Positions 5,253 to 43,860 are shown, counted from the stretch's first letter. The stretch: DNA of 64,000 nt from Acidobacteriota bacterium (GCA_965198355.1 CBDAPI010000015.1:922608-986607), one strand, 5' to 3'. Notes: generated by a model not told the origin, from the letters alone. Made by a program: numbers and translations.

Positions 5253-5283
5253 TCAATATCGCAATTTTATCTATGTAGAGGAT

Positions 5284-6215: not shown

Positions 6216-6286
6216 GTGTAAAGGCCAGAAGGGCCACGATCGAGCCAAAGCACCCGAGGCTGAGCATTCGTAGACAATGCAGGCTG

Positions 6287-7135: not shown

Positions 7136-7603
7136 AAATGCCGCCAAGTGGTCCAACCGATGGGGTCCACCTCTGTCTACTCCACCCCACTGTATCTACA
7201 TATTCCACAGATTAGCCTTCAGTCTGGTCTAATCGTCGCTTCAGATATTCCTTTTTGGATGGCGTTGGCCAGCTTGATCGCCAGCGCCACTGTCACGGTG
7301 GCCTTGTATATCTTTTTATACCGTTTGACTAAGAGTCTTCCGGTGGCATTAGGAGCAGCCTTAGCTCTGCAGCTGAATCCAACCTTCTGGTTCAATAGTG
7401 TATATGGCTTTGCTACAATTGTGGCCCTGGCTTTATTGTTAGTTTCCTTAGTTTTGTTTCAGGAGGTCTTAGAAAGTTCAACCTAAAATATTTATTCTAT
7501 GGTGGCGCCTTTCTCATGTATATATTGGCAGTCACCACCAAGATAGATACTATATTAGCCACTGCTATATTCTGCTTGCCGGTCTGGTCCTCTGAACGTT
7601 CGG

Positions 7604-9248
7604 TTAATGCTAACCCGGATTATGCAAGAGATCTGAATCCGAGTGAGATTTGGGTCCAGAAAAAAAGCCGTAGCTCTCTGATATAAAAGGGTTTACATAA
7701 AAACAACCCTAAACAGGAGCTACGGCTATGTTGAAAACAGTCTGCCAGAATACCCTGCCATTTCACAGCCACAGAGACATCACAGCTCGTTTTGATGGGG
7801 GGAGCCTCACTTCCGACGCAGGATGGTTGTTGTTTGGATCGCTGGATCGGCAACATCGATTGTGCGAGGGCTTCAGTTCGTGTATTGCGGAAAGCCGGGA
7901 CCGACGCTACATTCGTCATGACCTGTTGAAGTTGATCCGACAACGAGTGTTGCAGATCGTGGCCGGCTACGAAGACTGTAATGACGCCGATACGCTGCGC
8001 TCGGATCCGATGCTCAAGACAGTCTGTGATCAGTTGCCCGAGAGCGATCCCGATTTGGCCACCCAGCCGACTTTCTCCCGCTTGGAGAACTCCGTCACCA
8101 AGAAGGATCTGATGCGTCTGAGCCGGTGGCTGCTACGCCGTTATGTGCGCTCCCTGAAGAAGAGACGTCCCGCCAAGATCATCCTGGATCTGGACAGTAC
8201 CGACGACCACACTCACGGCCAACAGGAGTTCGCCTTCTACCACGGGTATTACCGAAACCACATTCTGCATCCTTTGCTGATCTTCGATGCCGCCACGGGA
8301 GACCTGGTCTGTGCCGTGTTGAGACCTGGCAACAAGGGGGCTGCCTCTCACATCGTGCCCATTCTGAAGCGCGTCGTGGAGGCCATCCGACAAGCAGTGG
8401 GGACGGATGTCGAGATTGAGATTCGGGCCGACAGCGGCTTTGCCACGCCTCGGCTCTACGAGTTCTGTGAAGGTGAAGAGAATCAACTCCAATATGTCAT
8501 TGGGTTAAGTCGCAACCCTCGCCTGCAGCGAGTGGTCGAGCCCCTGCTGGATTCGACTCGGGAAAGGTTCGTTGAGCGGGAGGAAAAACAGCGTCAGTTT
8601 GACGAGTTTCTTTATCGAGCCAACAGCTGGGATCGATCCCGTCGCGTCATTGTCAAAGTGGAGGTCGATCAGCGCGGGATCAATCGTCGCTTTGTGGTCA
8701 CCAACCGGGACGATCTCTGCTCCCAATCACTTTATGACCACTACACCGACCGAGGGCAGACCGAGAACTTCATCAAGGCCTTTAAGAATCATCTGAGCAT
8801 GGACCGACTCAGCTGTCATCGATTCCTGGCCAACCAGTTTCGACTCCTCCTGCATGCACTGGCTTACCAGATGTTCGTGCGCCTGCGCGACTATCTGCAC
8901 GGAACCCCCTGGCACAAGCTCGAAATCGAAACCTTACGTCGTCGTGTCCTCAAGATCGGGGCCCGGATCCGACAAACCACTCGACGCATCTGGGTCCATC
9001 TTTCCTCAGCCTTTCCCGAACAACCCCTCTTTCACCTCGTCTTGAGTCGCCTGAACTCCAGCTAGCTTCTCCCAGTTCCCCGAAAAACCGCTTCCGACAC
9101 TCATCCAGGCCCAGATCTGTCTGAAATTCACTCCCCCAACCACTCAAACGCCTCGCCAACCGATATTCTTCGCAAATCCGCCTGTCACAACTGCCCGCTT
9201 CCGAGTTGGGCCACTTCTCGAGCCCTTTTTCAACAGCGGATTACGGTT
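7604..9248 (+). mobile_element. IS1380-like (IS4-superfamily DDE) insertion sequence, copy 1
   Basis: ends TA(A/G)CCCGGATTATGCAAG ... CTTGCATAATCCGGGCTA; ~1.65 kb; >99% identical to the inverted copy at 20286-21952. Confidence 0.8.
7728..9065 (+). CDS. IS1380-family DDE transposase (445 aa)
   Basis: N-terminal ...ARFDGGSLTSDAGWLLFGSLDRQHRL... signature and a D..D..E core; differs by 2 aa from the copy at 20493-21830. Confidence 0.8.
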   Translation: MLKTVCQNTLPFHSHRDITARFDGGSLTSDAGWLLFGSLDRQHRLCEGFSSCIAESRDRRYIRHDLLKLIRQRVLQIVAGYEDCNDADTLRSDPMLKTVCDQLPESDPDLATQPTFSRLENSVTKKDLMRLSRWLLRRYVRSLKKRRPAKIILDLDSTDDHTHGQQEFAFYHGYYRNHILHPLLIFDAATGDLVCAVLRPGNKGAASHIVPILKRVVEAIRQAVGTDVEIEIRADSGFATPRLYEFCEGEENQLQYVIGLSRNPRLQRVVEPLLDSTRERFVEREEKQRQFDEFLYRANSWDRSRRVIVKVEVDQRGINRRFVVTNRDDLCSQSLYDHYTDRGQTENFIKAFKNHLSMDRLSCHRFLANQFRLLLHALAYQMFVRLRDYLHGTPWHKLEIETLRRRVLKIGARIRQTTRRIWVHLSSAFPEQPLFHLVLSRLNSS

Positions 9249-10149
9249 CTTGCATAATCCGGGCTAAGGTGATTTGGGTTGCCGCGTTGGTCGCATGTAC
9301 CGGTACCGTTTTCGTAACTTTTAATCAATATGCTCACTTTTTATCGCCTGATAAGACATCAATTGGCCATTGGAGTGATTATGGATCTGCGTTTCTTGTT
9401 GGTATTGAAAACCTTACCTCAAGGAGTAATCTCAGGACGATAGCTAAATCGGTAGGTCTTTTGAGTATTCCGGCAGCGTTGATCGCCATCATAATTACAG
9501 GATGGCAGCGTAAATGGCAGCTAACAATGTTTTGGTTGATTATGGCCGCCCTTCCAACTGTATTATTTTGGAGCATGATATCGGGAAATAGTGCCCGGCA
9601 TAATCTGATCCCAGGCGTATTTGTGTACGTTTTATTAGCATTACCATTTGCAACCCGCTTACGGCGAGATTGGGTCTACATTCTTGCCATCATCTTTGTT
9701 GTTAATTATTTGTACTATCCGCCCTCAGACAATACTGTTTCTCCTTCTGGCGGATTATTAGGAAATGCGCGTTTACTCAGAGACAGGGCAGAAGAGTACC
9801 ACACTCTGGGAGAAACGATTGCCCACTCAGCTCATCAAAAGATGGCAGTTATAGGAATCGGTTATAGACAACCCTATTTCATATTTGAAACGCTTCGAAG
9901 CCCTCAACTTTCCTATAATAGCCACAAAACAAATTTAAAAAAGGTGCAAACCTTGGAAATGAAAAATGACAACCAGAACCAAACCTTCCTTTGGATATAT
10001 GACGAACCAGAAATATCGGAAATTGTAGAATTAGTCAACAATGGCTATTCCGTAATTGTTATTGATAATGATGAGATGGATGAGATGTTAAAAGAGTTGG
10101 GTAACCTGCCGGAACTTCAAGGCAAGTTGGTGTCAATTGATGTGGAATA

Positions 10150-15232: not shown

Positions 15233-18010
15233 GTGCCATCTGTTAGAGTCTCCAAGGATGTGTATTTGGTCGCACTTTTCCCGTCGCACTTTTCCCTTAG
15301 AATAATTCAGTTCACCAACTTGCGTATACCTCTGGTCTTTTCCTTTATCCTGTCCTTCGGCTCGGCAATGGCTCAGTCGGTTGAGCTGGAGTGGGATCCG
15401 AACTCGGAGCCGGATCTGGCTGGATACAACGTTTACCGTTCGCTTTCATCCGGCTCCGGCTACTCCATCGTCAATCCCAGCCTGGTCCCTTCGCCATCGT
15501 ACACGGATACTACGGTCACCCCGGGTAATACCTATTATTATGTTGTCACCGCTCAAAACACTGGTGGCTTGGAGAGCGGTTTTTCCAATGAAATCAATAC
15601 CTTTATAGAGGGGCTTCCCCCAACTGCGGCGCTGACGCTGGTGAAGTCGTCGGATGCAACGTCTGCGCCGGCAGTGGGGGAGACCATCACCTATTCCTAT
15701 GTGGTCACGAACAGCGGCGAGGTGACGCTAACCGGTATTACGGTCACGGACGTTCATGGCGGCATCGGAGGGTCTTTCTCGGGAGTGAGTTGCCCAGCCA
15801 CGAGCATAGCCGTGGGTGACTCCATGACGTGTACAGCAACCTATGTGCTGGTGCAGGCAGTAAATGCAGGTTCGATTTCCAATACAGCCACAGCTGACAG
15901 TAACGAGACCGGCCCGGTGCAGGCAGACGTAAATGCAGGTTCGATTTCCAATACAGCCACAGCTGACAGTAACGAGACCGGCCCGGTGAGCAGTTCTTTG
16001 ACGGTGTCACTTTCCCCGAATGCGGCGCTGACACTGGTGAAGTCGTCCGATGCAACGCCTGACCCGGCAGTGGGAGAGACTATCACCTATTCCTATGTGG
16101 CCACGAACGGCGGCGAGGTGACGCTAACCGGTGTCACTGTCACGGACGTTCATGGCGGCATCGGAGGGTCTTTCTCGGGAGTGAGTTGCCCAGCGACGAG
16201 CCTGGCCGTGGGTGACTCGATGACATGCACAGCAACCTATGTGCTGGTGCAGGCAGACGCAGATGCAGGTTCCGTGTCCAATACAGCCACAGCTGACAGC
16301 AACGAGACCGGCCCGGTGAGCAGTTCTTTGACGGTGTCACTTTCCCCGAATGCGGCGCTGGCACTGGTGAAGTCGTCGGATGCAACGCCTGACCCGGCAG
16401 TGGGAGAGACTATCACCTATTCCTATGTGGCCACGAACGGCGGCGAGGTGACGCTAACCGGTGTCACTGTCACGGACGTTCATGGCGGCATCGGAGGGTC
16501 TTTCTCGGGAGTGAGTTGCCCAGCCACGAGCCTAGCCGTGGGTGACTCCATGACGTGTACAGCAACCTATGTGCTGGTGCAGGCAGACGTAAATGCAGGT
16601 TCGATTTCCAATACAGCCACAGCCGACAGTAACGAGACCGGCCCGGTGAACAGTTCTTTGACGGTACTGATAACCACTACTTTTCTGGTCCTGCCGACGA
16701 CCTTCGACCTGGGAAGTCCGGAATTTGAAGATACTTTCGTGGGTGCCGCAATCGCCAACCTTTCGGACCAGCCCGCCCACGTCGTCGTCTCTGCTCTGAC
16801 GAGCTTCGGGACCGAGGTTGCGAGCCAGCAACTCGGTGACGAGCTATTGGCCATGGGACAAGACGCATTCCTGACCACAGACCACCCCGAACTGGTGGAA
16901 GGCTCGAGCTCCTGGCTCCTGAGGGGAACCTCAGCAAAGGTGCGGGGATTTTTCATGATCGGCGACCGGGATATGAACAAGCTCGACGGGATCGGCGGCG
17001 AACTTGATGAATCGAAGTCACTGTTCTTCCCGCTGGCCAGAGAAAGCGCGGCTGGGAGCACCCTCCTTCATCTCTTCAATGTCGAGAAACAAGCGGGAAC
17101 CGTTACCCTCACTCTCTTCGAGCCTCTGGGGATCCCAGTCGCAGAGGCGGAGATCACGGTCGCACCCTCGGGTGGCGTACAGGGAACGATGGAAGAGATC
17201 TTCGGGGCGGGCCTCGAGTTCTCCGACGGGTACCTGGAGGTTCAGAGCAGTGTTCGGCTCAAAGGATTCGAGTTCTATGCGCAGGAGGGCGCATTTGCAG
17301 CCGTTCCCGGCCAAGCACCGCAGCCGACCTGGAAGCTGTGGACTCCTCATTTCTTTGTGGAGGGCCAGTCTGGTGACACCGAAATCCGCTTGTTGAGTAC
17401 GGATTCCGAAAGAGCCCGCGTCAGCATCCAGGGGTTTGACAACGAGTCCACTTTGATTGGAACCTACGAGCTCGAGATCGAGCCGGGACAACTCTTCGTC
17501 GGAAGTGTCCGGGAGATGCTCAACCTGGACCCCGGAATGGGCGTGATCACAGGCCACCTCGAGATCAGCCTGGAGGCCGGAACTTTCTTTACCTATTCCC
17601 CACAAGTATTGGGACTGGTCACTTTCAGCGCTAACGGAGGCAAATGGCTCTCGACCCTGCCCCTGCTGACCGAAGGACATAAAGAGACCCTGTTTCTCCA
17701 GGTGGCCCAATCTGATCAAATCGGGATGTTCACCGGCCTCGCCGTTCTCAATCCGGGTGAGTCGGCGGCGCAGGTAGAAGTCGAGGTTTTCGATCAGAAC
17801 GGGATCCGAACCGGCCGCGCCGGATTCAGCCTGGCTCCGGGTCAACGTGTGTTGAACTTGCTGGACGGGGACACTTATTTCGGAGACGGCTTCGAACAGA
17901 TCAAGGGACTCTTTCGAGTCAGGAGCACGGTTCCGGTCCTCAGCTTTTCACTCTTTGGAGACTACGGACTCCGGTTTCTTTCAGCGGTGGAAGGGCAGTA
18001 CCCGGAGTAG
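15233..18010 (+). CDS. 925-aa secreted surface protein: N-terminal FN3 domain, 3 tandem DUF11/TIGR01451-type 'conserved repeat domain' copies, and C-terminal unnamed modules shared with 21958-26544 and 29278-31755
   Basis: FN3: VELEWDPNSEPDLAGYNVYRS...NTYYYVVTAQN; DUF11: GETITYSYVVTNSGEVTLTGITVTDV...SCPATS..GDSMTCTATYV x3; C-terminal ...FTGLAVLNPGESAAQVEVEVFDQNG... Confidence 0.8.
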   Translation: MPSVRVSKDVYLVALFPSHFSLRIIQFTNLRIPLVFSFILSFGSAMAQSVELEWDPNSEPDLAGYNVYRSLSSGSGYSIVNPSLVPSPSYTDTTVTPGNTYYYVVTAQNTGGLESGFSNEINTFIEGLPPTAALTLVKSSDATSAPAVGETITYSYVVTNSGEVTLTGITVTDVHGGIGGSFSGVSCPATSIAVGDSMTCTATYVLVQAVNAGSISNTATADSNETGPVQADVNAGSISNTATADSNETGPVSSSLTVSLSPNAALTLVKSSDATPDPAVGETITYSYVATNGGEVTLTGVTVTDVHGGIGGSFSGVSCPATSLAVGDSMTCTATYVLVQADADAGSVSNTATADSNETGPVSSSLTVSLSPNAALALVKSSDATPDPAVGETITYSYVATNGGEVTLTGVTVTDVHGGIGGSFSGVSCPATSLAVGDSMTCTATYVLVQADVNAGSISNTATADSNETGPVNSSLTVLITTTFLVLPTTFDLGSPEFEDTFVGAAIANLSDQPAHVVVSALTSFGTEVASQQLGDELLAMGQDAFLTTDHPELVEGSSSWLLRGTSAKVRGFFMIGDRDMNKLDGIGGELDESKSLFFPLARESAAGSTLLHLFNVEKQAGTVTLTLFEPLGIPVAEAEITVAPSGGVQGTMEEIFGAGLEFSDGYLEVQSSVRLKGFEFYAQEGAFAAVPGQAPQPTWKLWTPHFFVEGQSGDTEIRLLSTDSERARVSIQGFDNESTLIGTYELEIEPGQLFVGSVREMLNLDPGMGVITGHLEISLEAGTFFTYSPQVLGLVTFSANGGKWLSTLPLLTEGHKETLFLQVAQSDQIGMFTGLAVLNPGESAAQVEVEVFDQNGIRTGRAGFSLAPGQRVLNLLDGDTYFGDGFEQIKGLFRVRSTVPVLSFSLFGDYGLRFLSAVEGQYPE
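15620..16675 (+). repeat. three ~330-bp tandem coding repeats with near-identical nucleotide sequence (DUF11 units)
   Basis: 16017-16345 vs 16347-16675 almost base-identical; first unit 15620-15990 more diverged. Confidence 0.75.
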
Positions 18011-18014
18011 GTTT

Positions 18015-18040
18015 GGGAATTGCGGATTTCGGATTGATCC
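18015..18040 (+). repeat. heptad array (GGAATTG-CGGATTT-CGGATTG), 5 nt after the stop of 15233-18010
   Basis: gggaattgcggatttcggattgatcc. Confidence 0.7.
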
Positions 18041-20287: not shown

Positions 20288-21952
20288 GTGCTAGCCCGGA
20301 TTATGCAAAAACCGTAGTCCGGTGTTGAAAAACGAGTCGAGAAGTGGCCCAACTCGGAAGCGGGCAGTTGTGACAGGCGGATTTGCGAAGAATATCGGTT
20401 GGCGAGGCGTTTGAGTGGTTGGGGGAGTGAATTTCAGACAGATCTGGGCCTGGATGAGTGTCGGAAGCGGTTTTTCGGGGAACTGGGAGAAGCTAGCTGG
20501 AGTTCAGGCGACTCAAGACGAGGTGAAAGAGGGGTTGTTCGGGAAAGGCTGAGGAAAGATGGACCCAGATGCGTCGAGTGGTTTGTCGGATCCGGGCCCC
20601 GATCTTGAGGACACGACGACGTAAGGTTTCGATTTCGAGCTTGTGCCAGGGGGTTCCGTGCAGATAGTCGCGCAGGCGCACGAACATCTGGTAAGCCAGT
20701 GCATGCAGGAGGAGTCGAAACTGGTTGGCCAGGAATCGATGACAGCTGAGTCGGTCCATGCTCAGATGATTCTTAAAGGCCTTGATGAAGTTCTCGGTCT
20801 GCCCTCGGTCGGTGTAGTGGTCATAAAGTGATTGGGAGCAGAGATCGTCCCGGTTGGTGACCACAAAGCGACGATTGATCCCGCGCTGATCGACCTCCAC
20901 TTTGACAATGACGCGACGGGATCGATCCCAGCTCTTGGCTCGATAAAGAAACTCGTCAAACTGACGCTGTTTTTCCTCCCGCTCAACGAACCTTTCCCGA
21001 GTCGAATCCAGCAGGGGCTCGACCACTCGCTGCAGGCGAGGGTTGCGACTTAACCCAATGACATATTGGAGTTGATTCTCTTCACCTTCACAGAACTCGT
21101 AGAGCCGAGGCGTGGCAAAGCCGCTGTCGGCCCGAATCTCAATCTCGACATCCGTCCCCACTGCTTGTCGGATGGCCTCCACGACGCGCTTCAGAATGGG
21201 CACGATGTGAGAGGCAGCCCCCTTGTTGCCAGGTCTCAACACGGCACAGACCAGGTCTCCCGTGGCGGCATCGAAGATCAGCAAAGGATGCAGAATGTGG
21301 TTTCGGTAATACCCGTGGTAGAAGGCGAACTCCTGTTGGCCGTGAGTGTGGTCGTCGGTACTGTCCAGATCCAGGATGATCTTGGCGGGACGTCTCTTCT
21401 TCAGGGAGCGCACATAACGGCGTAGCAGCCACCGGCTCAGACGCATCAGATCCTTCTTGGTGACGGAGTTCTCCAAGCGGGAGAAAGTCGGCTGGGTGGC
21501 CAAATCGGGATCGCTCTCGGGCAACTGATCACAGACTGTCTTGAGCATCGGATCCGAGCGCAGCGTATCGGCGTCATTACAGTCTTCGTAGCCGGCCACG
21601 ATCTGCAACACTCGTTGTCGGATCAACTTCAACAGGTCATGACGAATGTAGCGTCGGTCCCGGCTTTCCGCAATACACGAACTGAAGCCCTCGCACAATC
21701 GATGTTGCCGATCCAGCGATCCAAACAACAACCATCCTGCGTCGGAAGTGAGGCTCCCCCCATCAAAACGAGCTGTGATGTCTCTGTGGCTGTGAAATGG
21801 CAGGGTATTCTGGCAGACTGTTTTCAACATAGCCGTAGCTCCTGTTTAGGGTTGTTTTTATGTAAACCCTTTTATATCAGAGAGCTACGGCTTTTTTTCT
21901 GGACCCAAATCTCACTCGGATTCAGATCTCTTGCATAATCCGGGCTAGAATC
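20286..21952 (-). mobile_element. IS1380-like insertion sequence, copy 2 (inverted relative to copy 1)
   Basis: ends gcTAGCCCGGATTATGCAA (20283-) and CTTGCATAATCCGGGCTAg (-21952); internal sequence is the reverse complement of 7604-9248. Confidence 0.8.
20493..21830 (-). CDS. IS1380-family DDE transposase (445 aa), copy 2
   Basis: identical to 7728-9065 except for 2 substitutions (N/K, T/R). Confidence 0.8.
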   Translation of the reverse strand: MLKTVCQNTLPFHSHRDITARFDGGSLTSDAGWLLFGSLDRQHRLCEGFSSCIAESRDRRYIRHDLLKLIRQRVLQIVAGYEDCNDADTLRSDPMLKTVCDQLPESDPDLATQPTFSRLENSVTKKDLMRLSRWLLRRYVRSLKKRRPAKIILDLDSTDDHTHGQQEFAFYHGYYRNHILHPLLIFDAATGDLVCAVLRPGNKGAASHIVPILKRVVEAIRQAVGTDVEIEIRADSGFATPRLYEFCEGEENQLQYVIGLSRNPRLQRVVEPLLDSTRERFVEREEKQRQFDEFLYRAKSWDRSRRVIVKVEVDQRGINRRFVVTNRDDLCSQSLYDHYTDRGQTENFIKAFKNHLSMDRLSCHRFLANQFRLLLHALAYQMFVRLRDYLHGTPWHKLEIETLRRRVLKIGARIRQTTRRIWVHLSSAFPEQPLFHLVLSRLNSS

Positions 21953-26851: not shown

Positions 26852-26867
26852 TGGCACCCGAATTGCT
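26852..26867 (+). promoter_or_regulatory. sigma-54 (-24/-12) promoter candidate TGGCAC-N5-TTGCT, ~65 bp upstream of the PEP-CTERM gene
   Basis: gTGGCACccgaaTTGCTttc; AT-rich leader; sigma-54 enhancer-binding protein gene at 63387-64000. Confidence 0.5.
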
Positions 26868-26930: not shown

Positions 26931-27545
26931 ATGAACGTGAAAATGTCGGCATTGATCGTATCTATGGTCTTGATAGCGGCGGGATTCGTTGGCAACACAG
27001 AAGCAGCTACTATTACGTTGACGGGTTCTCAGATTGACTCTTTCGCTTTTAGCGCCGTAAGTAGTTCCTCGAACGTTTTTTCTGCCAGCAATAATTTTAA
27101 TGGTTTTTTCGATGTCGATTTCGACTCCACCAGCCCCGGCGCTGGATTGGGGGTCTTTGAACTGACAGGCCTCAGCATAACCTACACCGCAGGCGGATAC
27201 CTCTCGCTACTCTTCACGAATTTGAACTTTAGCACCTGGGGCTTCGAGTTGGTTGTTACTACGGATGGCGGAGTTTTCACAAGCGGCGTAACTGCCATCA
27301 CTGCAGGGTTTTCCAGTATTCTGTCCGCCACCCTGGCTTCGGGCTCTACGATCACAGATATTGAGATCTCGGTCTCGGGAACTATACCCAACACGAGCAA
27401 CCCCTTCGGTCTAGACGACGTGGCCGCTGATTGGCGGGTCCAAAGCGTATCCGAACCGGGCTACGTACCCGAACCGGGCACCTTGCTGTTGCTGGGCGCG
27501 GGCCTGCTTGGGTTACCCTTGGTGAGAAGACTTTCAGGAAGGTAG
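26931..27545 (+). CDS. PEP-CTERM sorting-domain protein (exosortase substrate), 204 aa
   Basis: signal peptide; C-terminus ...GYVPEPGTLLLLGAGLLGLPLVRRLSGR = PEP motif + TM + basic tail. Confidence 0.75.
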   Translation: MNVKMSALIVSMVLIAAGFVGNTEAATITLTGSQIDSFAFSAVSSSSNVFSASNNFNGFFDVDFDSTSPGAGLGVFELTGLSITYTAGGYLSLLFTNLNFSTWGFELVVTTDGGVFTSGVTAITAGFSSILSATLASGSTITDIEISVSGTIPNTSNPFGLDDVAADWRVQSVSEPGYVPEPGTLLLLGAGLLGLPLVRRLSGR

Positions 27546-29209: not shown

Positions 29210-29223
29210 GGTTGATCTAAACT

Positions 29224-29277
29224 CCCCAATCCGCAATCCATGATTCCCGAAATCCCAAATCCGAAATCCGCAATTTC
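29224..29277 (+). repeat. heptad array (7 units of AATCCGC/AAATCCC/AAATCCG type) filling the spacer between the LRR stop and the FN3 start
   Basis: ccccaatccgcaatccatgattcccgaaatcccaaatccgaaatccgcaatttcc. Confidence 0.7.
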
Positions 29278-32200
29278 CTACCTTCGCCTAGAATTCGTCG
29301 GTGGTGCAGCCGAGAGCGCCGTCAGGTTGTTGGTGCCAAACAGTTGTTGCGCTACGATGTCAACCGTTGAAGAGACCACGATATAGCCTCCCCTCTGCCC
29401 CTCGGTTTCGGGTACTAGTTCCGCGACGGTTCTCGAGATTCTGTGGAACGGATCCAGTTGAAGTTCCCTCACCCCCGTTTGCACTCCTTGGGGAGAAAAG
29501 ACACCAATCTCGATCTCGGCCGGGTCGGGCCCCGGATTGAAAAAGGCCAACCCCGTAAAAAAGCCTTCCAGATTAGCCACCTGATTGAACACGGCTCCCG
29601 AGAACGGCTCCGCTTGGAGCTGAAGAGCTGCAGCAAACTGCAACTGGCCCGGGTCTCCAAACACCACGTCGCCAATGATTCCTGGTCCATTCGCGGTCAT
29701 CTCGAGAGACCCCGTGACCGAGGGGGGCAGATCCATCAACTCCGAGAGATCAGACTCGAGCGTCTCTCTGGGAAGAAGCAAATAGTCCACAGTTTCTCCG
29801 ACGTTATTTCCCACCTCGTCAAACACGGAGAGGCTCACCGTTCGCGCCTCGTCACTGACATTGAGAACTTTGAGGTTCGTGAAGAGTAGGGAAGGGATCT
29901 CACTGGCCTGGGCTGAATAAAGCCGGGAGGCGTCAAACTCGATCCAGGGATTCAAGGCGAAGATCGTCTGCTCATCGCCGAGACTCACGTAATGGAACCC
30001 GAGGATGCCTCTACCCTCTTCCACTTCTGCTTCCAGGAAACCCTCTGAAACCTCGGGTATATCGAACAACTCCTCCACATCCATCGACAACAGGCCATAC
30101 GGCATCAGCGCCACCCTTGTATCCAGAATCTGTGCTGGAAAGATCGAAGTCAGGTGAAGTGTGAGCCGAACGGTTACCGGATCGACATTGGGATTGACCA
30201 AATGAATCCGGGTCTCAGCAGGTTGGCCACGAAAGGCAAGAGGTCCCTGATAGATCCGATCAAAGACCAAACGCCGCGATGCTCGCTCGACAGATATGGA
30301 CCCATCCATCCGGCTGAGATTCCAGTTGAAGAATTGGAAGAACGTGCCTATCTCCGGGTGGCTTGTCGTAATCCGAAGCCAACCGACTTGAGCCGTAGGG
30401 AGAGCAGAAGGACAGAAGAGATCCCGGCCCAGTCTGAGCACTTGCTCTCCCTGATCCAGAGTCACGTTCAGGAGATCCGTCGGGCAGGTTGTCAAATCAC
30501 CGAAGCTCTCGATCTGCAAGTCAACGAATTCATCGGCCTGATTGGAGATCGAGAATCCAGAAAAAGAGCCGCCCTGGGGAGGGACGTCCTCCTCCAGGTA
30601 GAAAGGGAAAAAGACGTCCCGGATTCTCCAGTTTCCTCCCAGCTGCTTCTGACCGAGGAACTGTTCCAAACTCTCGTTTCCCGAAGAGAGCTGGTTCCAA
30701 CGAAGATCCAGCTGTTGATCACCGAGGCGACTAAGATCGAGCAGGTCGGCTGGAACCTCTCCGGACAAATAGTTGGAGCGAAGCGAGAGGACCTGGAGCT
30801 GGGAAAGCCTTCCGAGTGACGCGGGGAGCTCACCTTCGAGGGTGTTATTGGCCAGCGCGAGGACTCGAAGTTGTGCGAGATTTCCGAGCTCGGAAGGGAT
30901 CAGACCCAGCAGCTGGTTATTGTCCAGGGCCAGCACCTCCAGCCGTGAGAGCAGGCTGAGTTGTGTGGGGATCGGGCCGGTCAAGTAGTTGCCAGATAAA
31001 GAAAGAAGCTCCAGGTCCATAACTGCAGCCGGAAGCGCAGTTAGGGTGACCGGAATCTCTCCACTGAGGCGATTGTCTTCCAGCGAGAGACGCAGCAATT
31101 GGGGCATCCCCAAGAGAACGGGAGGAATCGCACCCTCGAGCCGGTTGTGCCCCAAATTCAACGATCTCAGCTTGCTGAGACGTCCCAATTCGGCCGGTAT
31201 GGGACCCCACAAGTGGTTGCCCGCGAGACTGAGATATTCCAGCCGCGCAAGATTGGCAAGACTTGCCGGAATCTCACCGGAGAGTTGATTGTTGCTCAGG
31301 TCCAGGTCTCTGAGTCCGGAAAGCATCCCAATAGAAGGGGGGATGAGACCGTCAAATCGGTTGGAGTACAAGCGCAGGCTATCGAGGCCCGTCAGGTCCC
31401 CGATCTCGGCCGGTATCGGCCCCTCAAACTGATTATCGTAAAGCAAGAGCTGTGTCAGCTGGTTGAGCTGTTCGATATCGCCCGGGACGGGGCCGGTCAG
31501 CCGGTTCTTCTCCACCGAAAGAAGGCGCAGATTCTGAAGTGAACAGATCGACTCTGGAAGTTGGCCATTCAACAGATTGCCACCCAGACCCAATTCCAAG
31601 AGTTCTAGGAGACTGCCTATGTCAATCGGGATGGGGCCGGTTAAAGCGTTGTTCTCGAGACGGAGGAATTGCAACTGCGTCAGCTGCGTGATTTCGGAAG
31701 GAATCGTCCCAGCGAGTTCGTTTCCCGCGAGATTCAACAAGGTGAGTCGATCCAAGTTCCCAATGTTCTGAGGAAGTCCGCCTGAGAAGCTATTGTTCGC
31801 CAGATCGATTCTGCGGAGAGAGCTCAGAGATCCGATTGAAGCCGGTATTGCGCCTTCGAATCGGTTATTGGCAAGTTCCAGCGACTGGAGACTCCCCGAC
31901 TTGTTGATCGTGGCGGGGATTCCTCCCTCGAGATCATTCTCTGAGAGCGAGAGAGACTGCAGAACAGGTAATTCGAAAAGCGCGGGGGGGTCTCCCCGCT
32001 CAACTGGTTATCGTTGAGCGCGAGAACTCGAAGCGACCGGAGATTCCCGATTTCTGGTGGAATGGTTCCAGAGATCTGATTGTGGCCCAGAGAAAGGTAG
32101 CGCAGATTTTCGAGCTGTCCCAACTCGGAAGGGAGTGGTCCACCGAAGCGGTTGCGGCTCAGTGAGAGGTTCTGCAGATTGAGCAGGCTCCCGATCTCAG

Positions 32201-33170
32201 CCGGGATAGTCAAGCTGAGCTGGTTGTCAGCGGCCAAAAGTGAATGAAGCTCGCTCATGCTTTGCCACCCGGCGGGGATCGCCCCAGTAAAGTTATTGAA
32301 GCTTACGTCGAGAAAGTGTAATCGACTAAGGTCTCCCAGTTGGGGGGGTAGCCGGCCGCGAAGGCGATTGTGGTCGAGGCGAAGACTGAACAGGCGTGAG
32401 AGGCCGCCCAGCTGAGCGGGGATTCTTCCGGAAAGCCCGTTCTCCCCGAGGTTGAGAACTTGGAGAGCCTCAAGGGCTCCCATTTCCCGTGGAATCGGTC
32501 CAGTCAGTTCATTCCGGGAGAGATTGAGAGATCTCAACTGTTGCAGTTGTCCCAGTTCCGCTGGGATTTGCCCTCTTAGTCGGTTGCCGGATAAGGAGAT
32601 ATTCCTGAGACTACTCGAATCGCCAAGAGACTGAGGAATCGCTCCCGTAAACAAGTTGTTATCCAGGAGAACCGATTCCAATTGCTGCATCCGGCCTAGA
32701 AAACCTGGAACGGAGCCACTGAGCTTGTTGCCGGCAAGGGAGAGGGTCTTTAGGTTGGGAAGATCCTCGAGACTGTCCGGCAGTTTGTCTGAAAGGGCGT
32801 TGTCATTGAGCCGCAACTCGACAAGCTCATAGAGCAGGCCGATCTCGGTCGAAAGGGAGCCGACGAGATTATTCGCAGACAGGTTGATCTTGAAGACTTG
32901 ACCCTCGCGAACCTCCACACCATGCCACTCCCCCTCAGTTCCCTCCGGTCCGAGCCATCCTTCAGCGTTGAACCACTCTTCGCCGCCCGCTTGCACGTAA
33001 AGATCAATCAGGGCCTCCCGTTCCTGCGGGGGAATGGGTTCGGACGTTCCCCCGTCCTGGCTACGCACGAAGCCGATTCCAAGACAAAGGGATAGTAGTA
33101 GAGCAAGGGAAACTCGCATGAAAGTCATGAAAGTCATGTTCAACAGACTCTTGAGCTTCACTGCCAACAC
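29278..33170 (-). pseudogene. ~1290-aa secreted plant-type (24-residue) LRR protein with the shared C-terminal module; split into 31824-33170 and 29278-31755 by a frameshift in a G7 (minus-strand C7) homopolymer at ~31987-31993. Either a pseudogene or phase-variable
   Basis: LxxLxxLxLxxNxLSGxIPxxLGxL repeats x>30; adding one C restores ...GETPPALFELPVLQSLSLSENDLEGGIPATINKSGSLQSLELANNRFEGAIPASIGSL... and joins the two ORFs. Confidence 0.7.
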
Positions 33171-33182
33171 TCGTTCTTACTC

Positions 33183-33429
33183 ATTTCAGCAATCCAAATC
33201 CGCAATCCGAAATCCGAGATTCCCTTGTTGTTTCTCTACAGAACCAGAAACCGATAGTACTGGAGCTTAAGAAACTGCAGCGTGACCTCCTGGATACCGT
33301 GCCAGCTTTCGGCCCAGTTCGCCGGAGTCCTAGTTCCTAACACGGGGACGCAGCGAACCTCAATGCTCAACTCACCCAAAGATTCTTGATAGATTCGAGT
33401 CGAGCGTCGGCTGCGGCAGGATCCGGGCG
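33183..33429 (+). repeat. 245-bp direct repeat, copy 1 (heptad array at its 5' end), flanking the IS3 remnant
   Basis: ~99% identical to 34078-34324 (1 indel). Confidence 0.8.
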
Positions 33430-34074
33430 TGGCGGCAGATCCAGAGCCTGACAGCCGGCACGGACTCCGTGGGATTGTGAGAATCGCAAAGCTTCGTCCA
33501 TCAGCTCTCGTCTCCGTTCTCTTCGCTGCTCGCCAGAGAGATTCCCAACAGTTGCGAGACTTTTTTTTGGAGATCCAGCATGGCTTCAAACTTCTCGAGC
33601 TTGCGTTTCAGCTTCCGATTCTCAGCCTCCACTTGCCTCAGTTGATGATCCAGAGGATTGACCGGCTTTGCCTTTCGTCCCCGCTTGCGAGGGGTCAATG
33701 CCTGCAGCGTTCCGTGCTCGCGTTGGCGTCGCCAGGTCTGCAGATTCGACCAGTAAAGTCCTTCTCGGCGCAGTAATGCTCCCACTTCGCCCGACTCTTC
33801 GCAGCCATCGGCCTGCTCCAGGACCCGGAGCTTATAGCGGGCTGAAAACCGGCGACGGGTTGCCTTGGCAGGAACTTCCGGGTCGGGTCGCGGCAACGCC
33901 TTCTCGGGCTCGGTCCGTCCCGCAGCGATTTTGGAGACCTCTCCCCTCCGCTCCGAGGTTTCCAAAATCCTCAGTTTCTTGTCGCTTCTGTTTTCTATCA
34001 TTCTGTAATCCAGCTTCTCGCCCTCTACTCTAATTTAGCCGGGAAGAAGTGTCTCACCATTATTGGCACAGAGG
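33430..34074 (-). mobile_element. IS3-family remnant (same IS as 1-1262): orfB deleted, orfA and right end retained
   Basis: identity to copy A from ~612 to 1262; A8 instead of A7 at the slippery site. Confidence 0.75.
33501..34001 (-). CDS. IS3-family transposase OrfA (166 aa, natural stop)
   Basis: identical to the N-terminus of the 380-1189 product up to ...AMLDLQKK. Confidence 0.8.
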   Translation of the reverse strand: MIENRSDKKLRILETSERRGEVSKIAAGRTEPEKALPRPDPEVPAKATRRRFSARYKLRVLEQADGCEESGEVGALLRREGLYWSNLQTWRRQREHGTLQALTPRKRGRKAKPVNPLDHQLRQVEAENRKLKRKLEKFEAMLDLQKKVSQLLGISLASSEENGDES

Positions 34075-34077
34075 GTT

Positions 34078-34324
34078 TCAGCAATCCAAATCCGCAATCC
34101 GAAATCCGAGATTCCCTTGTTGTTTCTCTACAGAACCAGAAACTCGATAGTACTGGAGCTTAAGAAACTGCAGCGTGACCTCCTGGATACCGTGCCAGCT
34201 TTCGGCCCAGTTCGCCGGAGTCCTAGTTCCTAACACGGGGACGCAGCGAACCTCAATGCTCAACTCACCCAAAGATTCTTGATAGATTCGAGTCGAGCGT
34301 CGGCTGCGGCAGGCGGGCGTCACC
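34078..34324 (+). repeat. 245-bp direct repeat, copy 2 (begins with heptad array 34081-34116)
   Basis: see 33183-33429. Confidence 0.8.
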
Positions 34325-35417: not shown

Positions 35418-35436
35418 TTGGGGCCTTCAGCAGTAA

Positions 35437-36072
35437 GTATCCCCCGGCAAAGCCGGGGGCTTTAATCTTGTGAGCCGCTCAAAGCGGACTTGACGTTGCC
35501 GCTACCGCGGCCACTTGTGCCACCTACAGGTGGCTTGGCTACAGCAGCCTGAGCTGATCCTGGCGACGATCTTCTGCTTCTTGCCGCCGGATATACTCAC
35601 GAATCACTTTCTCATCCCGACCCACCGTCGATACGAAGTATCCGCGAGCCCAGAAGTGCTGTCCAACAAAGTTACGCCGACTCTCTGAAAAGTTCCTCGC
35701 AATGTGGATGGCGCTTTTCCCTTTGATGTACCCGATCACCTGCGCCACAGAAAACTTTGGCGGAATCGAGATCATCACGTGCACGTGATCCGGCAGCAGG
35801 TGGCCCTCTTCAATCAAGCTTTCCTGCTGCCCAGCCAACCGTCGCAGCACCTGACCGAGATGTCTGCGCAGCTCCCCATAAATCAACTTCTTGCGGTACT
35901 TGGGGATGAACACCACATGGTACTTACACTCCCATTTTGTATGCTGTAAGCTCTGGTAGTTACTCATAAAACTCCTTTTCGTGATGCTTTGCTCGGCTCA
36001 CGGAAGGGAGTTTTTTCACCTATTCCCGGAACTGTCAAACTCTGGCTGCCTCCCCGGCAGAGCCGGGGGGAC
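35437..36072. mobile_element. IS200/IS605-family element (tnpA only) bounded by near-identical subterminal hairpins
   Basis: cccccggcaaagccggggg (35441-35459) and ctccccggcagagccgggggg (36050-36070). Confidence 0.6.
35539..35967 (-). CDS. tnpA: IS200-type Y1 (HUH) transposase TnpA
   Basis: WECKYHVVFIPKYRKK...HLLPDHVHVMISIPPKFSVAQVIGYIKGKSA. Confidence 0.85.
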   Translation of the reverse strand: MSNYQSLQHTKWECKYHVVFIPKYRKKLIYGELRRHLGQVLRRLAGQQESLIEEGHLLPDHVHVMISIPPKFSVAQVIGYIKGKSAIHIARNFSESRRNFVGQHFWARGYFVSTVGRDEKVIREYIRRQEAEDRRQDQLRLL

Positions 36073-37957
36073 TCCTTACGGGTCTAGGATTCGCGATGCT
36101 ATAAAGGTGCTCAAGACCGCGAATGAATATCTGTCCCTCGACCAGGGCTGGAGATGCAAGTGTGTCCTCATCGATTGAGTTCTTCGAAAGCAACCTGTAC
36201 TCAGATCCCGCGGCCACGACACTGGTTGTACCGTCCGAGGAGGGTATGTAGATCTTGCCGTCGCCGGCGGCCAACGCTCCGGTAAACCTCCCTCCTGTCA
36301 ACCGTTTCCGGTAGAGGATCTCGCCACTTTCCTTGTCGGCACAATAGAAGATCCCGTTCAGCGTGACCCAGTAGATTTGATCTCCCAAGACCACCGGCGA
36401 AGAGACGTCTGGGATCCCCTTGGTGACCTGCCATTTCTGGTGCGTCTCCGTGATATCCCCTTGGCCACCCAAACGCACAGCCGTCACGCTGGCTGGACCG
36501 TGTGTTCCACCGGCCAGATAGGCGGATTCCTGGTCTGAAACGGGGCTTGGTACTGGTTGCTCAAGGGGGGCCTGGAACAACCAGCGTCTTTCTCCCGTGT
36601 CAACATCGAATGCCAGCCCATGGTGGTAGGTCGTGATCAGGACCAGGGTCTCTTCTTGCCCTTTTAGAACCAGGGGAGTCCCGTAGGATTCGTGGGCACC
36701 TGGAATAGAATCAGCTCTCCACAACTCCTTGCCAGTGGCCAAGTCGAGGGCGGCCAGATAAGAATGTATTTGAAACGGGTAAGTGTGGTCGCCGGCGCCA
36801 GCATCGGGGTTCTCGGCGAAGAAGGGGAGGATGAGACGATCGCCTACAATCACCGGCGAACTACTAGCCCCATAGCGCAAATACTCACGGTATAGAGGCT
36901 CCATTCTGGTCCATTGGATATTTCCCTCAAAATCCAGACAGACCATCCCCGGACCGAAGTTGGCCACAAGGAATCTCCCGTCCGTCACAGGAGTGGGTGT
37001 CGCGTAGGAATTCGTCCTGTACTTCCTTCCGCTCGGAGCTCTGAAACCAGCGCGCTCCCAGAGTACTTCTCCAGTGGCTCGATCAAGCGCCACGACATTG
37101 CGAGAGCGCTGAGGTACCCAGACATTAAAAAAGGTAAAGTTGAGGGCCACCAGCAAGAAGAGGCTGAGGGCACATGCCGCCCGACTGACCCAGCGGTTCG
37201 GAGCAAGGCTGTCATCAGCGAATCGAGACAAGAGATAAGCGAAAAGATACCATACACCAGCAACAGTCATCGGACCCACGACTTTTAGCAGGCGTCTTAT
37301 CCCGAACGGCAGAGTCGCTTCGCGTAGAGGCAGCCAGAGATAGAAAGCGAGACTCAGGCCGCCAAGCAGAGGTAAACCCAGGAGGCGCCATTTCGAGCGT
37401 ACAGGAAGGAAGCCGACAGCCGCGATCAAACCCAGCATTAGAGTTCTTGACGAGGCCATCCAGGTTCCGCCGGGATCGCCTTCTCTGAAGGGCTCCGTTT
37501 GAAAGAGGAGCTCAAGAAGCATGTACACAAAAAGTAGGGTCGCCCCCGTGACCAGGAGCCGATCCATCCAAAGAGCCACCGCAAACCACCACTGAGGTCC
37601 GCTTCTGTCTCGCTTAGCCATTCCGGAGACGATCAGGTAGCCCGTCGACAATAAGAACAGGATCAAGATTCCGGAGCTAAACCAGATGAGTTGCTTTTTG
37701 CTGAGAATCCTGTCTGGACTCTCGATTGCCGTGGAAACAAAGACGCGATCATCCCAGACAATAGGAGATGAGATGCCGTCTCCGCCAATGCGAGTCTTCC
37801 AGAGAATATTGTGGTCGGGGCTCCACTCGACTGGTAGGTTGCGGGCTTCGGAAAGCCCGTTGCCATCCCCCCGCCAACCTGGCCATCGATTTCCCTCAGC
37901 CAGAACATTGGATAGGCTCAGGAGCAGCCAGATGATAATAAACGGTGTTTTTCGCAT
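36035..37957 (-). CDS. PQQ-like beta-propeller repeat protein with signal peptide and an internal ~250-aa polytopic membrane segment; C-terminal ~15 aa encoded by the IS200 terminal hairpin
   Basis: NILWKTRIGGDGISSPIVWDDRVFVST and further PQQ-type repeats; central stretch of ~7 hydrophobic helices. Confidence 0.6.
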   Translation of the reverse strand: MRKTPFIIIWLLLSLSNVLAEGNRWPGWRGDGNGLSEARNLPVEWSPDHNILWKTRIGGDGISSPIVWDDRVFVSTAIESPDRILSKKQLIWFSSGILILFLLSTGYLIVSGMAKRDRSGPQWWFAVALWMDRLLVTGATLLFVYMLLELLFQTEPFREGDPGGTWMASSRTLMLGLIAAVGFLPVRSKWRLLGLPLLGGLSLAFYLWLPLREATLPFGIRRLLKVVGPMTVAGVWYLFAYLLSRFADDSLAPNRWVSRAACALSLFLLVALNFTFFNVWVPQRSRNVVALDRATGEVLWERAGFRAPSGRKYRTNSYATPTPVTDGRFLVANFGPGMVCLDFEGNIQWTRMEPLYREYLRYGASSSPVIVGDRLILPFFAENPDAGAGDHTYPFQIHSYLAALDLATGKELWRADSIPGAHESYGTPLVLKGQEETLVLITTYHHGLAFDVDTGERRWLFQAPLEQPVPSPVSDQESAYLAGGTHGPASVTAVRLGGQGDITETHQKWQVTKGIPDVSSPVVLGDQIYWVTLNGIFYCADKESGEILYRKRLTGGRFTGALAAGDGKIYIPSSDGTTSVVAAGSEYRLLSKNSIDEDTLASPALVEGQIFIRGLEHLYSIANPRPVRSPPGSAGEAARV

Positions 37958-41899: not shown

Positions 41900-43860
41900 A
41901 GAGCTGGCGCGGTAGCCATCTCAGGCCCCGTTTCCAGCTCCCGCCTCGTCAAACACAGCATGCGGATTTCCCGCACTGCGCTTTCCTCTCGGCTTCACGA
42001 AAGGGCTTATGAGACCTATCGAGCTGGTTTGGCTATCGGCGGGGCTGAAAGCGCTGAACCCTGTACTGATCGTACAAGCCCAACTCCTGATACAGCCAGC
42101 GCCGACTCCACCTCTTCCAACCGAAGCCCCGGAGTTTCCGGGCACGCATCAGATGCCGTCGCACCTTCTTTTCCACCCAGTCACGAATGAAAGAGAAACA
42201 TCGACTCGAATGCCCTACCGCAAAGTAGTTGACCCAACCTCGAAGAATCGGGTTGATCAGTTCGATTACCCGCCCTATAGGTTGGGATTGAAAGCGCCGG
42301 AAGATCTCCTTGAGCTTCCGCACCAGTGCCGTTCGCTTTTTCAGCTTGGGCACATAATGCGGCCGCCACCGTCCCCGCAAGCTGCGCACACGGCGGAACT
42401 CAAAGCCCAGGAATCCAAAGCTTTCCCCTTTGCTCAGGTCTACGATTCGACTCTTCTCTTCATTGATCTCGACTCGGAGTTTGGCAAACTCCTCCCGGAG
42501 CCTCTGGCGTACCGCCCGTAGAAGCCAAGCATGCCGCCGATAGCCATCGATGAGAATGACCAGATCATCGGCGAACCGGGCATACTCCACATACGTGTAG
42601 CGGCCACTTCGCGTGACCCGTTTGGCCCGTTCCAGCATCCGATCCACTTCATTCAGGTAGAGATTAGCGATCAACGGTGAAATCACTCCACCCTGAGGAA
42701 CACCCCGTTTGCCACTCGCTTTCACGATCAGTTTTAGCAGGTGCAGGATCTCTCGATCCTGGACGCGTGCTGCCACTTTCTCAAACAAGATGTCGTGCCG
42801 GACGTTGTCGAAGTAGCACTTCAAATCCACGTCCACCACCCGGGTTTTGTTCTCCACAATGGCTTGAGCTACTCTGTGAACCGCCTGATGAGCGGTCCGC
42901 TTCGGGCGATAGCCATAGGACCCCTTTTGGAAGTCCGCCTCGAAGATGGGTTCCAGGATTAGCTTGAGCGCTCCCTGGACCACACGGTCCCGGATGGTCG
43001 GGATCGATAGAACGCGAGCTTTGCCCCCGTCCTTCGGAATCTCCTGCTTCCGGACCCGCTGCGGCTGATACTTGCGTGAGGTCAACTCGTCCCGGATCTG
43101 CTCGAGAAACTCCTCTACTCCACTCTCTTCGATGGCCTCGAAGCGAACCCCATCGATTCCGGGGGCTCCTTTGTTCTTCTTGGCCAATCGATAGGCTTCA
43201 CGAAGGGTTTCCATTTTGCAGACATGGACGTACAACCCCCAGAAACGCCAGGACGGTTCAGCCTTCGCCTTGACGTATATCCTCCGTCTCAGGTCTTGCA
43301 GATTGTCGGACGCCTTTATCATCTCGCCCCTGCCTCCCTTTGTCGACTGAGGAACTACCGACAGTTGGGTCCCTTCGCTCCACAGGCATTACCCGCGCTT
43401 CACAGCTAATACAGACCCATCCGCCACCCCTCTCGTCTTCGGCCGACTTCCCGGTGTCGCCGGTTATACGGCCTACCTTTCTCCGCGTCGATTTCTCGAC
43501 GGGACGAGGAGGGCTTCTCCAGTTGCTTGGCATGTCCTTGTCACCGTGCCGCCGCTTCCACCCCGCCGGAGTGGACCACCGCTTCAGTCAGTCTGCGGAA
43601 GTCCATGCTGCCTTCACCCTACGGTTGCAGGCTCGGCCTCCGAGGCTTCGCACTTTCGAGGCCACTTCTGCGTTCATTTGCATTACGGCCCAGTGACTCG
43701 CTCACCACCCTATAGATGGTTTTGTCGATGGGCTTCAAGGCTTTAGTTTCCCTCCACCCTGCCATCCAAGCTACAGAGCTTCTGACTTTTACCCTGGCAG
43801 GACTGACTCCTGCCGAACACACCAGCCTTAGCTGGACACACAGCCGCAATTGCTGCTTAC
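41900..43860 (-). mobile_element. bacterial group II intron (boundaries approximate) in the spacer between the epimerase and UPF0104 genes
   Basis: intron-encoded RT/maturase; domain-V-like GAAA hairpin on the minus strand (gcagtgcGGGAAATCCgcatgctg, ~41965-41990); candidate 5' GUGUG at ~43850. Confidence 0.6.
42033..43322 (-). CDS. group II intron reverse transcriptase/maturase (RT + domain X, no endonuclease domain)
   Basis: RT motifs ...RGVPQGGVISPLIANLYLNEVD...YVEYARFADDLVIL...; maturase ...ILRGWVNYFAVGHSS... Confidence 0.85.
   Translation of the reverse strand: MIKASDNLQDLRRRIYVKAKAEPSWRFWGLYVHVCKMETLREAYRLAKKNKGAPGIDGVRFEAIEESGVEEFLEQIRDELTSRKYQPQRVRKQEIPKDGGKARVLSIPTIRDRVVQGALKLILEPIFEADFQKGSYGYRPKRTAHQAVHRVAQAIVENKTRVVDVDLKCYFDNVRHDILFEKVAARVQDREILHLLKLIVKASGKRGVPQGGVISPLIANLYLNEVDRMLERAKRVTRSGRYTYVEYARFADDLVILIDGYRRHAWLLRAVRQRLREEFAKLRVEINEEKSRIVDLSKGESFGFLGFEFRRVRSLRGRWRPHYVPKLKKRTALVRKLKEIFRRFQSQPIGRVIELINPILRGWVNYFAVGHSSRCFSFIRDWVEKKVRRHLMRARKLRGFGWKRWSRRWLYQELGLYDQYRVQRFQPRR

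Follow-up and report, generated by a model that had tools for sequence, protein, structure and literature searches.

Heptanucleotide units repeated in short tandem arrays have been described from several bacterial groups. In 1990, Mazel et al. reportedly described the short tandemly repeated repetitive (STRR) sequences of heterocystous cyanobacteria, genome-specific heptamers such as CCCCAGT in short intergenic arrays. STRR sequences have been used chiefly as fingerprinting targets, and their positional rules are undefined. The Rickettsia palindromic elements (RPE), of which Ogata et al. wrote in 2000, are said to be short repeats that have inserted, without breaking the frame, at permissive positions of conserved protein genes. 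Here, we analysed a 64,000-nucleotide stretch of one strand from an Acidobacteriota bacterium (GCA_965198355.1, CBDAPI010000015.1:922608-986607; hereafter the window), in which arrays of the heptad GGATTKS occur at six loci, one of them filling the spacer between two genes around positions 29,224 to 29,277. The arrays very probably represent a lineage-specific, dispersed family of heptanucleotide simple-sequence repeats. They are a previously described kind of bacterial repeat. As in STRR sequences, the heptads are genome-specific and intergenic; the units differ. The literal repeat sequences were not found in a literature search.

Among the most similar systems is that of Rehm et al. (2015), who reported GGGAATC in Xanthomonas and GGGGA(C/T)T in Nostoc as dispersed, non-coding arrays of usually four units (PMC4692102). 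Those repeats lie within about 50 nt of the open reading frame (ORF) that their G-rich strand has on its 5′ side, some overlap stop codons, and inverted pairs occur; both strands are transcribed, the neighbouring genes show no functional bias, and no function is known (PMC4692102). GGGNATC repeats form G-quadruplexes (G4) in vitro (PMC4692102). Like them, the window arrays consist of tandem 7-nt units and are dispersed with an excess in non-coding DNA; the preference for about four units and the polarity towards the 5′ side recur among the arrays of many phyla. Unlike them, the window unit carries only GG, no quadruplex is predicted by computation, and the host is probably a member of the Acidobacteriota. 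Seen here beyond that description are translated arrays, in-frame inserts and replacement of the unit between close relatives.

Three further systems are relevant. TAACTGA repeats were described by MacGregor (2015) from marine Beggiatoaceae and some Cyanobacteria and Bacteroidetes, with 2-6 copies per set and about 170 loci; they mostly lie a few nucleotides 5′ of start codons without a Shine-Dalgarno sequence, their phylogenetic distribution is scattered and their origin is unknown (PMC4679880). TAACTGA contains stop codons and has a strong single orientation upstream of genes, whereas GGATTKS has no stop codon in any of the six frames and is found either way round. The survey of long simple sequence repeats (LSSR) by Mrazek, Guo and Shah (2007), as it is presented in two later papers, found that, in the large GC-rich genomes of non-pathogens, no class of long unit is more abundant than heptanucleotides, and proposed replication slippage in a 7-nt register (PMC4679880, PMC4692102); as presented there, it does not address the dominance of one unit per genome or array polarity. 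In Haemophilus influenzae, 7-bp repeats between the promoter and the start codon of the surface-protein genes hmw1A and hmw2A have a proven effect on expression (PMC8262952, PMC12721329).

The arrays of the window are located as follows:

18011-18040, + strand: array 1, GTTTGGGAATTGCGGATTTCGGATTGATCC, sense strand G-rich, starting directly after a TAG stop codon
20264-20287, − strand: array 2, GGGAATTTCGGATTTCGGATTTCC on the − strand, 7 nt past the stop codon of a carbamoyltransferase gene (20257)
29221-29277, − strand: array 3, about 7-8 units, sense strand G-rich, the whole spacer from the stop codon of an LRR gene to the next ATG
33188-33223, − strand: array 4, about 5 units, sense strand G-rich, 18 nt 5′ of the second LRR gene (31824-33170)
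34081-34116, − strand: array 5, an exact duplicate of array 4
63324-63345, + strand: array 6a, GGGTTTCGGATTTCGGATTGGG, C-rich when read in the direction of the flanking − strand genes
63361-63384, + strand: link between arrays 6a and 6b, degenerate units ATTGCGGATTTGGGCGCGCGGATTGTGG
63391-63426, + strand: array 6b, whose complement codes for the 3′ end of a PEP-CTERM-box sigma-54 response regulator

An earlier note on this DNA had claimed heptads at these six loci, and at all six we could read 3-8 imperfect units of the form GGATT[G/T][G/C], i.e. GGATT followed by two variable bases that are mostly TC, GC, TG or GG (complement SMAATCC, core AATCC). No array holds more than 2-3 perfect units. 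TRF reported a period of 7 at each locus, and this unit accounted for six of the eight period-7 arrays that it found in the window at the first threshold; the histogram of spacings between GGATT/AATCC cores likewise has its maxima at 7 and 14 nt. The excess over chance is considerable: with up to two mismatches, GGATTTCGGATT has 24 matches in the window, compared to 6.99 ± 2.58 (maximum 12) in 100 dinucleotide-preserving shuffles.

The placement of the arrays at gene boundaries, as it had been described before, largely stood up to inspection. Array 1 begins 1-5 nt past the stop codon (18008-18010) of the FN3/DUF11 gene, which carries DUF7507, DUF11 and fn3 domains according to Pfam, and array 2 follows the carbamoyltransferase gene at the expected distance. 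Array 3 does fill the spacer between the LRR gene (stop codon 29278-29280) and the next gene (ATG at 29211), and its last unit continues into a GGGGAG Shine-Dalgarno-like site; the next gene had been taken for an FN3 gene, whereas Pfam gives it a weak PKD-like score. Arrays 4 and 5, which had been placed on a duplicated segment, are exact duplicates, and the segment measures 237 nt (68 + 169 nt with a 1-nt indel) and not 245 bp. Array 5 exists because an 892-nt tandem duplication (1.27 copies; 33184-34075 repeated as 34076-34313, with a 237-nt overlap) copied array 4. Array 6 overlaps the end of the sigma-54 activator gene, as had been noted, and the complement of 6b is translated there into the last 10 codons and the stop codon of the regulator (ending in LYQLMDKLEISNSKSEIRSP; SNSKSEIRSP followed by the stop). 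A GGTTCTG unit, of a type found in relatives, precedes array 6a. An IS3-type ORF with orfA only (33501-34001, HTH_Tnp_1) lies inside the 892-nt duplication (33184-34313).

The same genome could be followed beyond the window on a contig from ENA sample ERZ25071889 (L393), which is 100% identical to the final 3.2 kb of the window and reaches 9.2 kb further. Four further GGATTKS arrays lie in these 9.2 kb, and in all four the C-rich strand is the sense strand of the gene. One provides codons 2-8 of a lipoprotein signal peptide (MKIRNPKSAF...), another lies within the first codons of a hexapeptide transferase, a third is degenerate, about 115 nt long and located beside an insertion sequence (IS), and the remaining one fills the spacer from the stop codon of a histidine kinase to where the sigma-54 regulator starts. 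If the duplicate is taken as a single array, this amounts to 10 arrays in 73 kb or about one per 7 kb, with the sense strand G-rich at three loci and C-rich at six. All arrays of the window and of L393 lie between genes or reach into them by no more than about 13 terminal codons, and gene starts and gene ends host them equally often. These data support the view of a dispersed, mostly non-coding family at gene ends in both orientations. The description of the arrays as something other than coding sequence went too far, as several of them give first or last codons and, in other phyla, arrays form in-frame inserts in conserved enzymes. Nor could the proposed preference for surface-protein and glycan genes over housekeeping DNA be established: a 21-kb housekeeping stretch of the same sample (L001) contains no GGATT array, a difference to the 10 arrays in 73 kb that is not significant.

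Could the number of heptads switch genes on and off? Such contingency loci, in which shifts in heptad number would alter the frame or leader of genes for surface proteins, lipoproteins or regulators, find some encouragement in the neighbourhood. LRR, DUF11 and PKD surface proteins are among the array neighbours, and arrays overlap the first codons of the lipoprotein and the hexapeptide transferase. At some arrays, namely those at L393 1390 and 3694 and at the start of the sigma-54 regulator (PrsR), the number of units would set frame or spacing. The sigma-54 regulator is a PEP-CTERM-box response regulator whose homologues begin with M-x(2-4)-KLLIVDDD. At its start (L393 8404-8520, about 0.7 kb past window position 64000), no canonical in-frame start codon precedes KLLLVDDDD, and an ATG within the heptads misses the frame by one base, so that one extra heptad would bring it into frame. 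Either this start contains a long-read indel, or the number of heptads holds the gene in an OFF state; an indel of that kind is seen in the carbamoyltransferase gene. Switching by 7-bp repeats also has a precedent in hmw1A and hmw2A (PMC8262952, PMC12721329), where the tracts are long, perfect and hypervariable at two loci, whereas the window arrays are short, imperfect, numerous and invariant in the available samples. With only 2-3 perfect units and with interruptions, they should be poorly mutable; arrays 1 and 2 are unchanged in near-identical contigs from two other samples, and array 6 is unchanged in a second haplotype, distinguished by an IS3 insertion and a 167-nt duplication, which makes the arrays identical in three samples and two haplotypes. 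In addition, several arrays lie past stop codons, where copy number switches nothing, and the neighbours of the repeats of Rehm et al. are functionally unbiased (PMC4692102). We therefore regard a contingency function as unlikely.

The heptad habit is by no means limited to this genome. A scan for three consecutive GGATTKS units in one genome per species, with some genomes listed twice, yielded at least 120 loci, and it also retrieved the (GGGGATT)n arrays of Xanthomonas and Nostoc. The matches listed include Planctomycetota, Verrucomicrobiota, Acidobacteriota (many of them Pyrinomonadaceae), Chloroflexota, Gemmatimonadota, Bacteroidota, Cyanobacteria, Xanthomonadales, Nitrospirota and others. 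Among these matches, no tandem period is as frequent as 7 (276 of 912 arrays), and array size has its maximum at 4-5 units. Other heptads co-occur, among them, in Nostoc loci, the STRR unit CCCCAGT alongside GGATTGG arrays. For 211 arrays, comprising the listed loci and those of the window, 26 had three units, 71 had four, 75 had five and 19 had six.

The position of the listed arrays follows a rule. While 13.6% of random positions fall outside ORFs, 44% of the listed arrays do, and another 23% are located at ORF termini. The nearer ORF lies on the 5′ side of the G-rich strand in 82 cases and on the other side in 33, with median distances of 11 and 95 nt, and in half of the listed arrays the stop codon or the CAT (reverse start) of an ORF of at least 80 codons lies within 45 nt on that side. 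This polarity is the same whether the adjoining ORF end is a stop or a start. Within the window, arrays 1 and 3 fit the rule, as does array 2 once the neighbouring IS is removed, while arrays 4 and 6 do not. The 5′ boundary of the arrays is fuzzy (the preceding unit has kept ATT and lost GG), whereas the 3′ boundary is sharp. One third of the listed arrays in other phyla form inverted pairs, 8-143 nt apart; of the inverted pairs within 150 nt, 31 have the G-array first and the C-array second, and only 3 show the reverse order. In an Opitutaceae metagenome-assembled genome (L075), a composite of a GGATTGC array, a GC-rich hairpin and an ATTCCGG array occurs in two copies 1.1 kb apart (354-506 and 1470-1622); it resembles a genuine repeated element more than it does a plain array.

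The idea that GGATT is a motif uniquely conserved across phyla was considered and lost ground when permuted cores were used as controls (viral collection): three units of these were found at 76 and 49 loci, compared to at least 120 for GGATT, and five units at 15 compared to 28. It is thus a common unit and not a unique one. Since permuted heptads are only about two-fold rarer as arrays, heptad arrays are generic.

About 110 kb from relatives, whose carbamoyltransferases share 82-92% protein identity with that of the window, contain no GGATT array. The gene neighbourhoods of the carbamoyltransferase differ among these relatives without synteny, and the idea that the arrays are conserved at orthologous loci was rejected, with neither synteny nor GGATT arrays in these relatives. 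What the relatives do have are arrays of GGGTTCT, GGGTTCC, GTTCCAAG and TTCCAGAG, i.e. of 7-8-nt units, at similar density. GGTTCTT and GGTTCTG arrays are also present in the genome of the window, one of them directly after a stop codon. Hence, the habit of carrying arrays is common to the clade, while the unit is not.

These results bear on the idea that the arrays are binding sites, at which a DNA- or RNA-binding protein (a nucleoid or regulatory protein, or one of the S1, CsrA or Csp type) marks gene boundaries. One unit at ten or more loci in 73 kb, a size maximum of 4-5 units, the strong polarity and the rule of G-array followed by C-array would all suit such a protein, to which unstructured arrays would be accessible; similar proposals have been made for TAACTGA repeats (PMC4679880). 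Close relatives with different units, translated inserts in enzyme loops and permuted heptads at about half the frequency do not suit it, and a sense strand that is G-rich at three and C-rich at six loci argues against a single RNA ligand. Sigma-54 promoters were a specific candidate, as (GGATTGC)2 has GG-N10-GC spacing, and they failed in a scan for TGGCAC-N5-TTGC: a single match with two mismatches touches an array, and 53 matches were found overall where 56 were expected, so the arrays are not −24/−12 sites. The regulator-binding array that the earlier note had proposed is disfavoured by the mixed orientation to transcription and the different units in relatives, and binding sites of any kind seem to us a decidedly improbable explanation.

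A perfect match to a sigma-54 −24/−12 promoter was found elsewhere in the window, at 26852-26866 (+ strand; TGGCACCCGAATTGC), about 65 nt 5′ of an ORF at 26931-27545. This promoter is likely a target of the PEP-CTERM-box regulator.

Structure in the DNA or in the RNA had been suggested as well, in the form of G-quadruplexes or transcript-end structures, which might act on termination or mRNA stability. G-runs every 7 nt, the quadruplexes formed in vitro by the related GGGNATC (PMC4692102) and three arrays directly past stop codons make this an obvious thought. Folding with the gquad option of ViennaRNA predicted no quadruplex for any window array, whereas a (GGGGAUU)5 control reached −30.6 kcal/mol; the reason is that the units carry GG and not GGG. 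The window arrays fold no better than shuffles (z-scores −1.0, −0.3, −0.4, +0.6 and −0.4), and the sole significant hairpin near any of them is the end of an IS. Terminator-like and promoter-like sites in the window scan remained at chance level with none coinciding with an array, and Rfam 15 gave no match above gathering score at the arrays. Moreover, the arrays are found equally at gene starts and gene ends, and for half of the copies it is the C-rich strand that is present in the mRNA. Folds, terminator scan and Rfam together rule out a structured RNA or terminator, and we consider an action through quadruplexes or transcript ends extremely unlikely. The only Rfam match of the window is a group II intron domain at 43678-43815 (− strand, RF02003, 118.8 bits), which adjoins a 429-aa ORF (42033-43322).

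One mobile element was inserted beside array 2:

20291-21949, − strand: IS element with a DDE_Tnp_1_4 transposase, inverted repeat CCCGGATTATGCAA and a 4-bp YTAG target duplication, outside the repeat family

Three copies of this IS were found, two in the window (7610-9276 and 20291-21949) and one in L393 (about 4619-6277), with CCCGGATTATGCAA and the 4-bp YTAG duplication in common. Array 2 is located 3 nt from the CTAG target of its neighbour; before insertion, array 2 made up the spacer, about 45 nt in length, that separated the carbamoyltransferase gene from a 1528-aa ORF at 21958. The arrays lie outside CCCGGATTATGCAA and the YTAG duplication, and the third IS copy has no array. Aligning the three copies thus ruled out that the arrays are terminal pieces of an IS or of a miniature inverted-repeat transposable element (MITE), a point on which the earlier note is supported. 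One of the relatives that lack GGATT arrays carries the DDE_Tnp_1_4 IS at 96% DNA identity. Copies of this 1.66-kb element are 96-98% identical, including one in that set of relatives (L126 4825-6485), and two of the three copies of the present genome adjoin a heptad array. A second mobile unit, of the IS200 type, occupies 35431-36087 and contains a Y1 transposase gene (35539-35967); it is 97.6% identical in the relatives L126 and L127.

Are the arrays related to repetitive extragenic palindromic (REP) sequences, REPINs, RPE or MITEs? On this view, the inverted pair would be the active form, mobilised in trans, and the window arrays would be its decayed halves. Such a reading could build on the paired third of the arrays elsewhere, G-array before C-array, among the matches listed, on an in-frame pair in SucD, as known for RPE, and on the Y1 transposase gene of the window. 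The same order of G-array and C-array is, however, also yielded by ORF-proximal polarity alone, and the 97.6% identical Y1 element resides in L126 and L127, both of which lack GGATT arrays. In an alignment of six copies, identity is confined to the heptads, with no shared boundaries or target-site duplication; the window copies have no partner arm, palindrome or hairpin, no terminal inverted repeats and no conserved flanks, and a repeat search found no inverted repeats around arrays 4 and 5. Unit number and sequence differ from copy to copy, unlike in transposed copies. The REP- or MITE-like nature put forward at first is therefore not borne out for the window, and we attach a low probability to this type of element.

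Some arrays lie inside genes. We compared 20 arrays located deep within long ORFs with Pfam domains. Nine of them are flanked on either side by domains that share one frame, three are located upstream of every domain, six are in ORFs without a Pfam match and two are unclear; the three upstream cases suggest false 5′ extensions of the ORF. Alignment to solved structures gave clean inserts that keep the frame. HrpA contains an in-frame insert of 33 aa between the positions of Escherichia coli residues 614 and 615, in which three unit types follow one another over about 14 heptads, SucD one of 30 aa that is an inverted pair of arrays, ArgD one of 15 aa, and MurD an in-frame insert in its middle domain. 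RPE are 100-150-nt palindromes of conserved sequence, whereas the inserts seen here are heptad arrays.

In SucD, the loop in question measures 19-20 aa in most homologues and 28, 32, 44 or 46 aa in one marine clade from metagenomes. The extra 24, 36, 72 or 78 nt are GGATT/AATCC heptads and always amount to a multiple of three. A site thus acquires an array in one lineage, and the length of the array changes afterwards. As only in-frame states are seen in essential genes, which are hard to reach via single 7-nt slips, entry of the array as a block is suggested. In another lineage (L409, from a metagenome), the same loop (TEGxP to GPNCPG) contains an 8-nt repeat, (GACAAGGA)n, with a short inverted repeat at its flanks, and this part of SucD seems to attract or to tolerate inserts of simple repeats.

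Searching protein databases with the translated repeat mostly returned spurious ORFs of 45-98 aa. Many public "proteins" of this size are translated heptad arrays only, a number of which JGI has named 'major type 1 subunit fimbrin (pilin)', a naming that looks like a propagated mis-annotation.

Taken together, we favour, with moderate confidence that extends to the mechanism, the explanation that the arrays are tolerated, self-propagating heptad simple repeats. An array would enter a site as a short block, possibly copied from another array via template switching or illegitimate recombination; we propose that such copying between arrays accounts for both the single unit per genome and the in-frame inserts. 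Subsequently, it would lengthen or shorten in 7-nt steps by slipped-strand mispairing, and it would persist only where extra sequence does no harm: in spacers, in the tails of proteins and in loops at their surface. Selection that depends on orientation close to start and stop codons would then produce the polarity. Following this argumentation, the cell probably tolerates the arrays as selfish or neutral DNA, and their effects on spacer length, leader composition and reading frame are incidental.

Several points weigh against this explanation. Block insertion and template switching are inferred only from the in-frame inserts and the one unit per genome. A function, for example a protein footprint or a role in translation, could instead lie behind the peak in array length and the strong polarity, and the ORFs of the cross-phylum comparison are greedy longest ORFs and hence crude. 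There is no difference in copy number among the three near-identical samples or haplotypes, so that slippage was not observed at the window loci themselves. Finally, the nearest named homologues belong to Acidobacteriota/Bryobacterales at about 60% identity, which leaves the placement of the window uncertain. A more novel reading takes the arrays not for passive microsatellites but for mini-elements across phyla that insert as blocks with polar orientation, with a genome-specific template or machinery writing heptads beside ORF boundaries and sometimes, in frame, into permissive loops of essential genes. This would explain the one unit per genome, the rapid replacement of units, the fuzzy 5′ and sharp 3′ edges and the 31:3 excess among pairs, and we hold it to be possible on a small chance only.

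Additional observations concern variation in the window. The DUF7507/DUF11 surface-protein gene contains a coding tandem repeat of 330 nt (15860-16665; 2.3 copies, 95% matches), at which a near-identical contig from another sample (L128) has about 257 nt extra, indicating that the copy number of the 330-nt repeat varies. At about 18835, a 1-nt indel separates the intact carbamoyltransferase gene of the window (526 aa) from the gene of L128 and L129, which was called as 391 aa; it is either a frameshift or a long-read error. A haplotype difference was recognised at window 60448 and 60660-60987 by comparison with L393 12237-13923: the window has a 167-nt tandem duplication, whereas contig_44 of ERZ25071889 has an IS3-family insertion at the point that corresponds to window 60447/60448. 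This IS3 element has a further copy at window 5864-7174.

What does the window add to the heptamer arrays known since 1990 as STRR sequences and surveyed in 2007 and 2015? It contributes a unit from a soil lineage, with no predicted quadruplex. The arrays also have a practical side, as gene callers respond to them with wrong starts, with ORFs that are fused and with small 'proteins' consisting of nothing but repeat; the end of contig L128 coincides with the stop codon next to array 2, so the arrays may break assemblies, too. The in-frame inserts in essential genes would be hard to create by in-situ slippage alone, and the turnover of units would be hard to explain with a conserved binding protein. 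The published positional rule holds in many phyla, and turnover of the unit between close relatives is shown as well.

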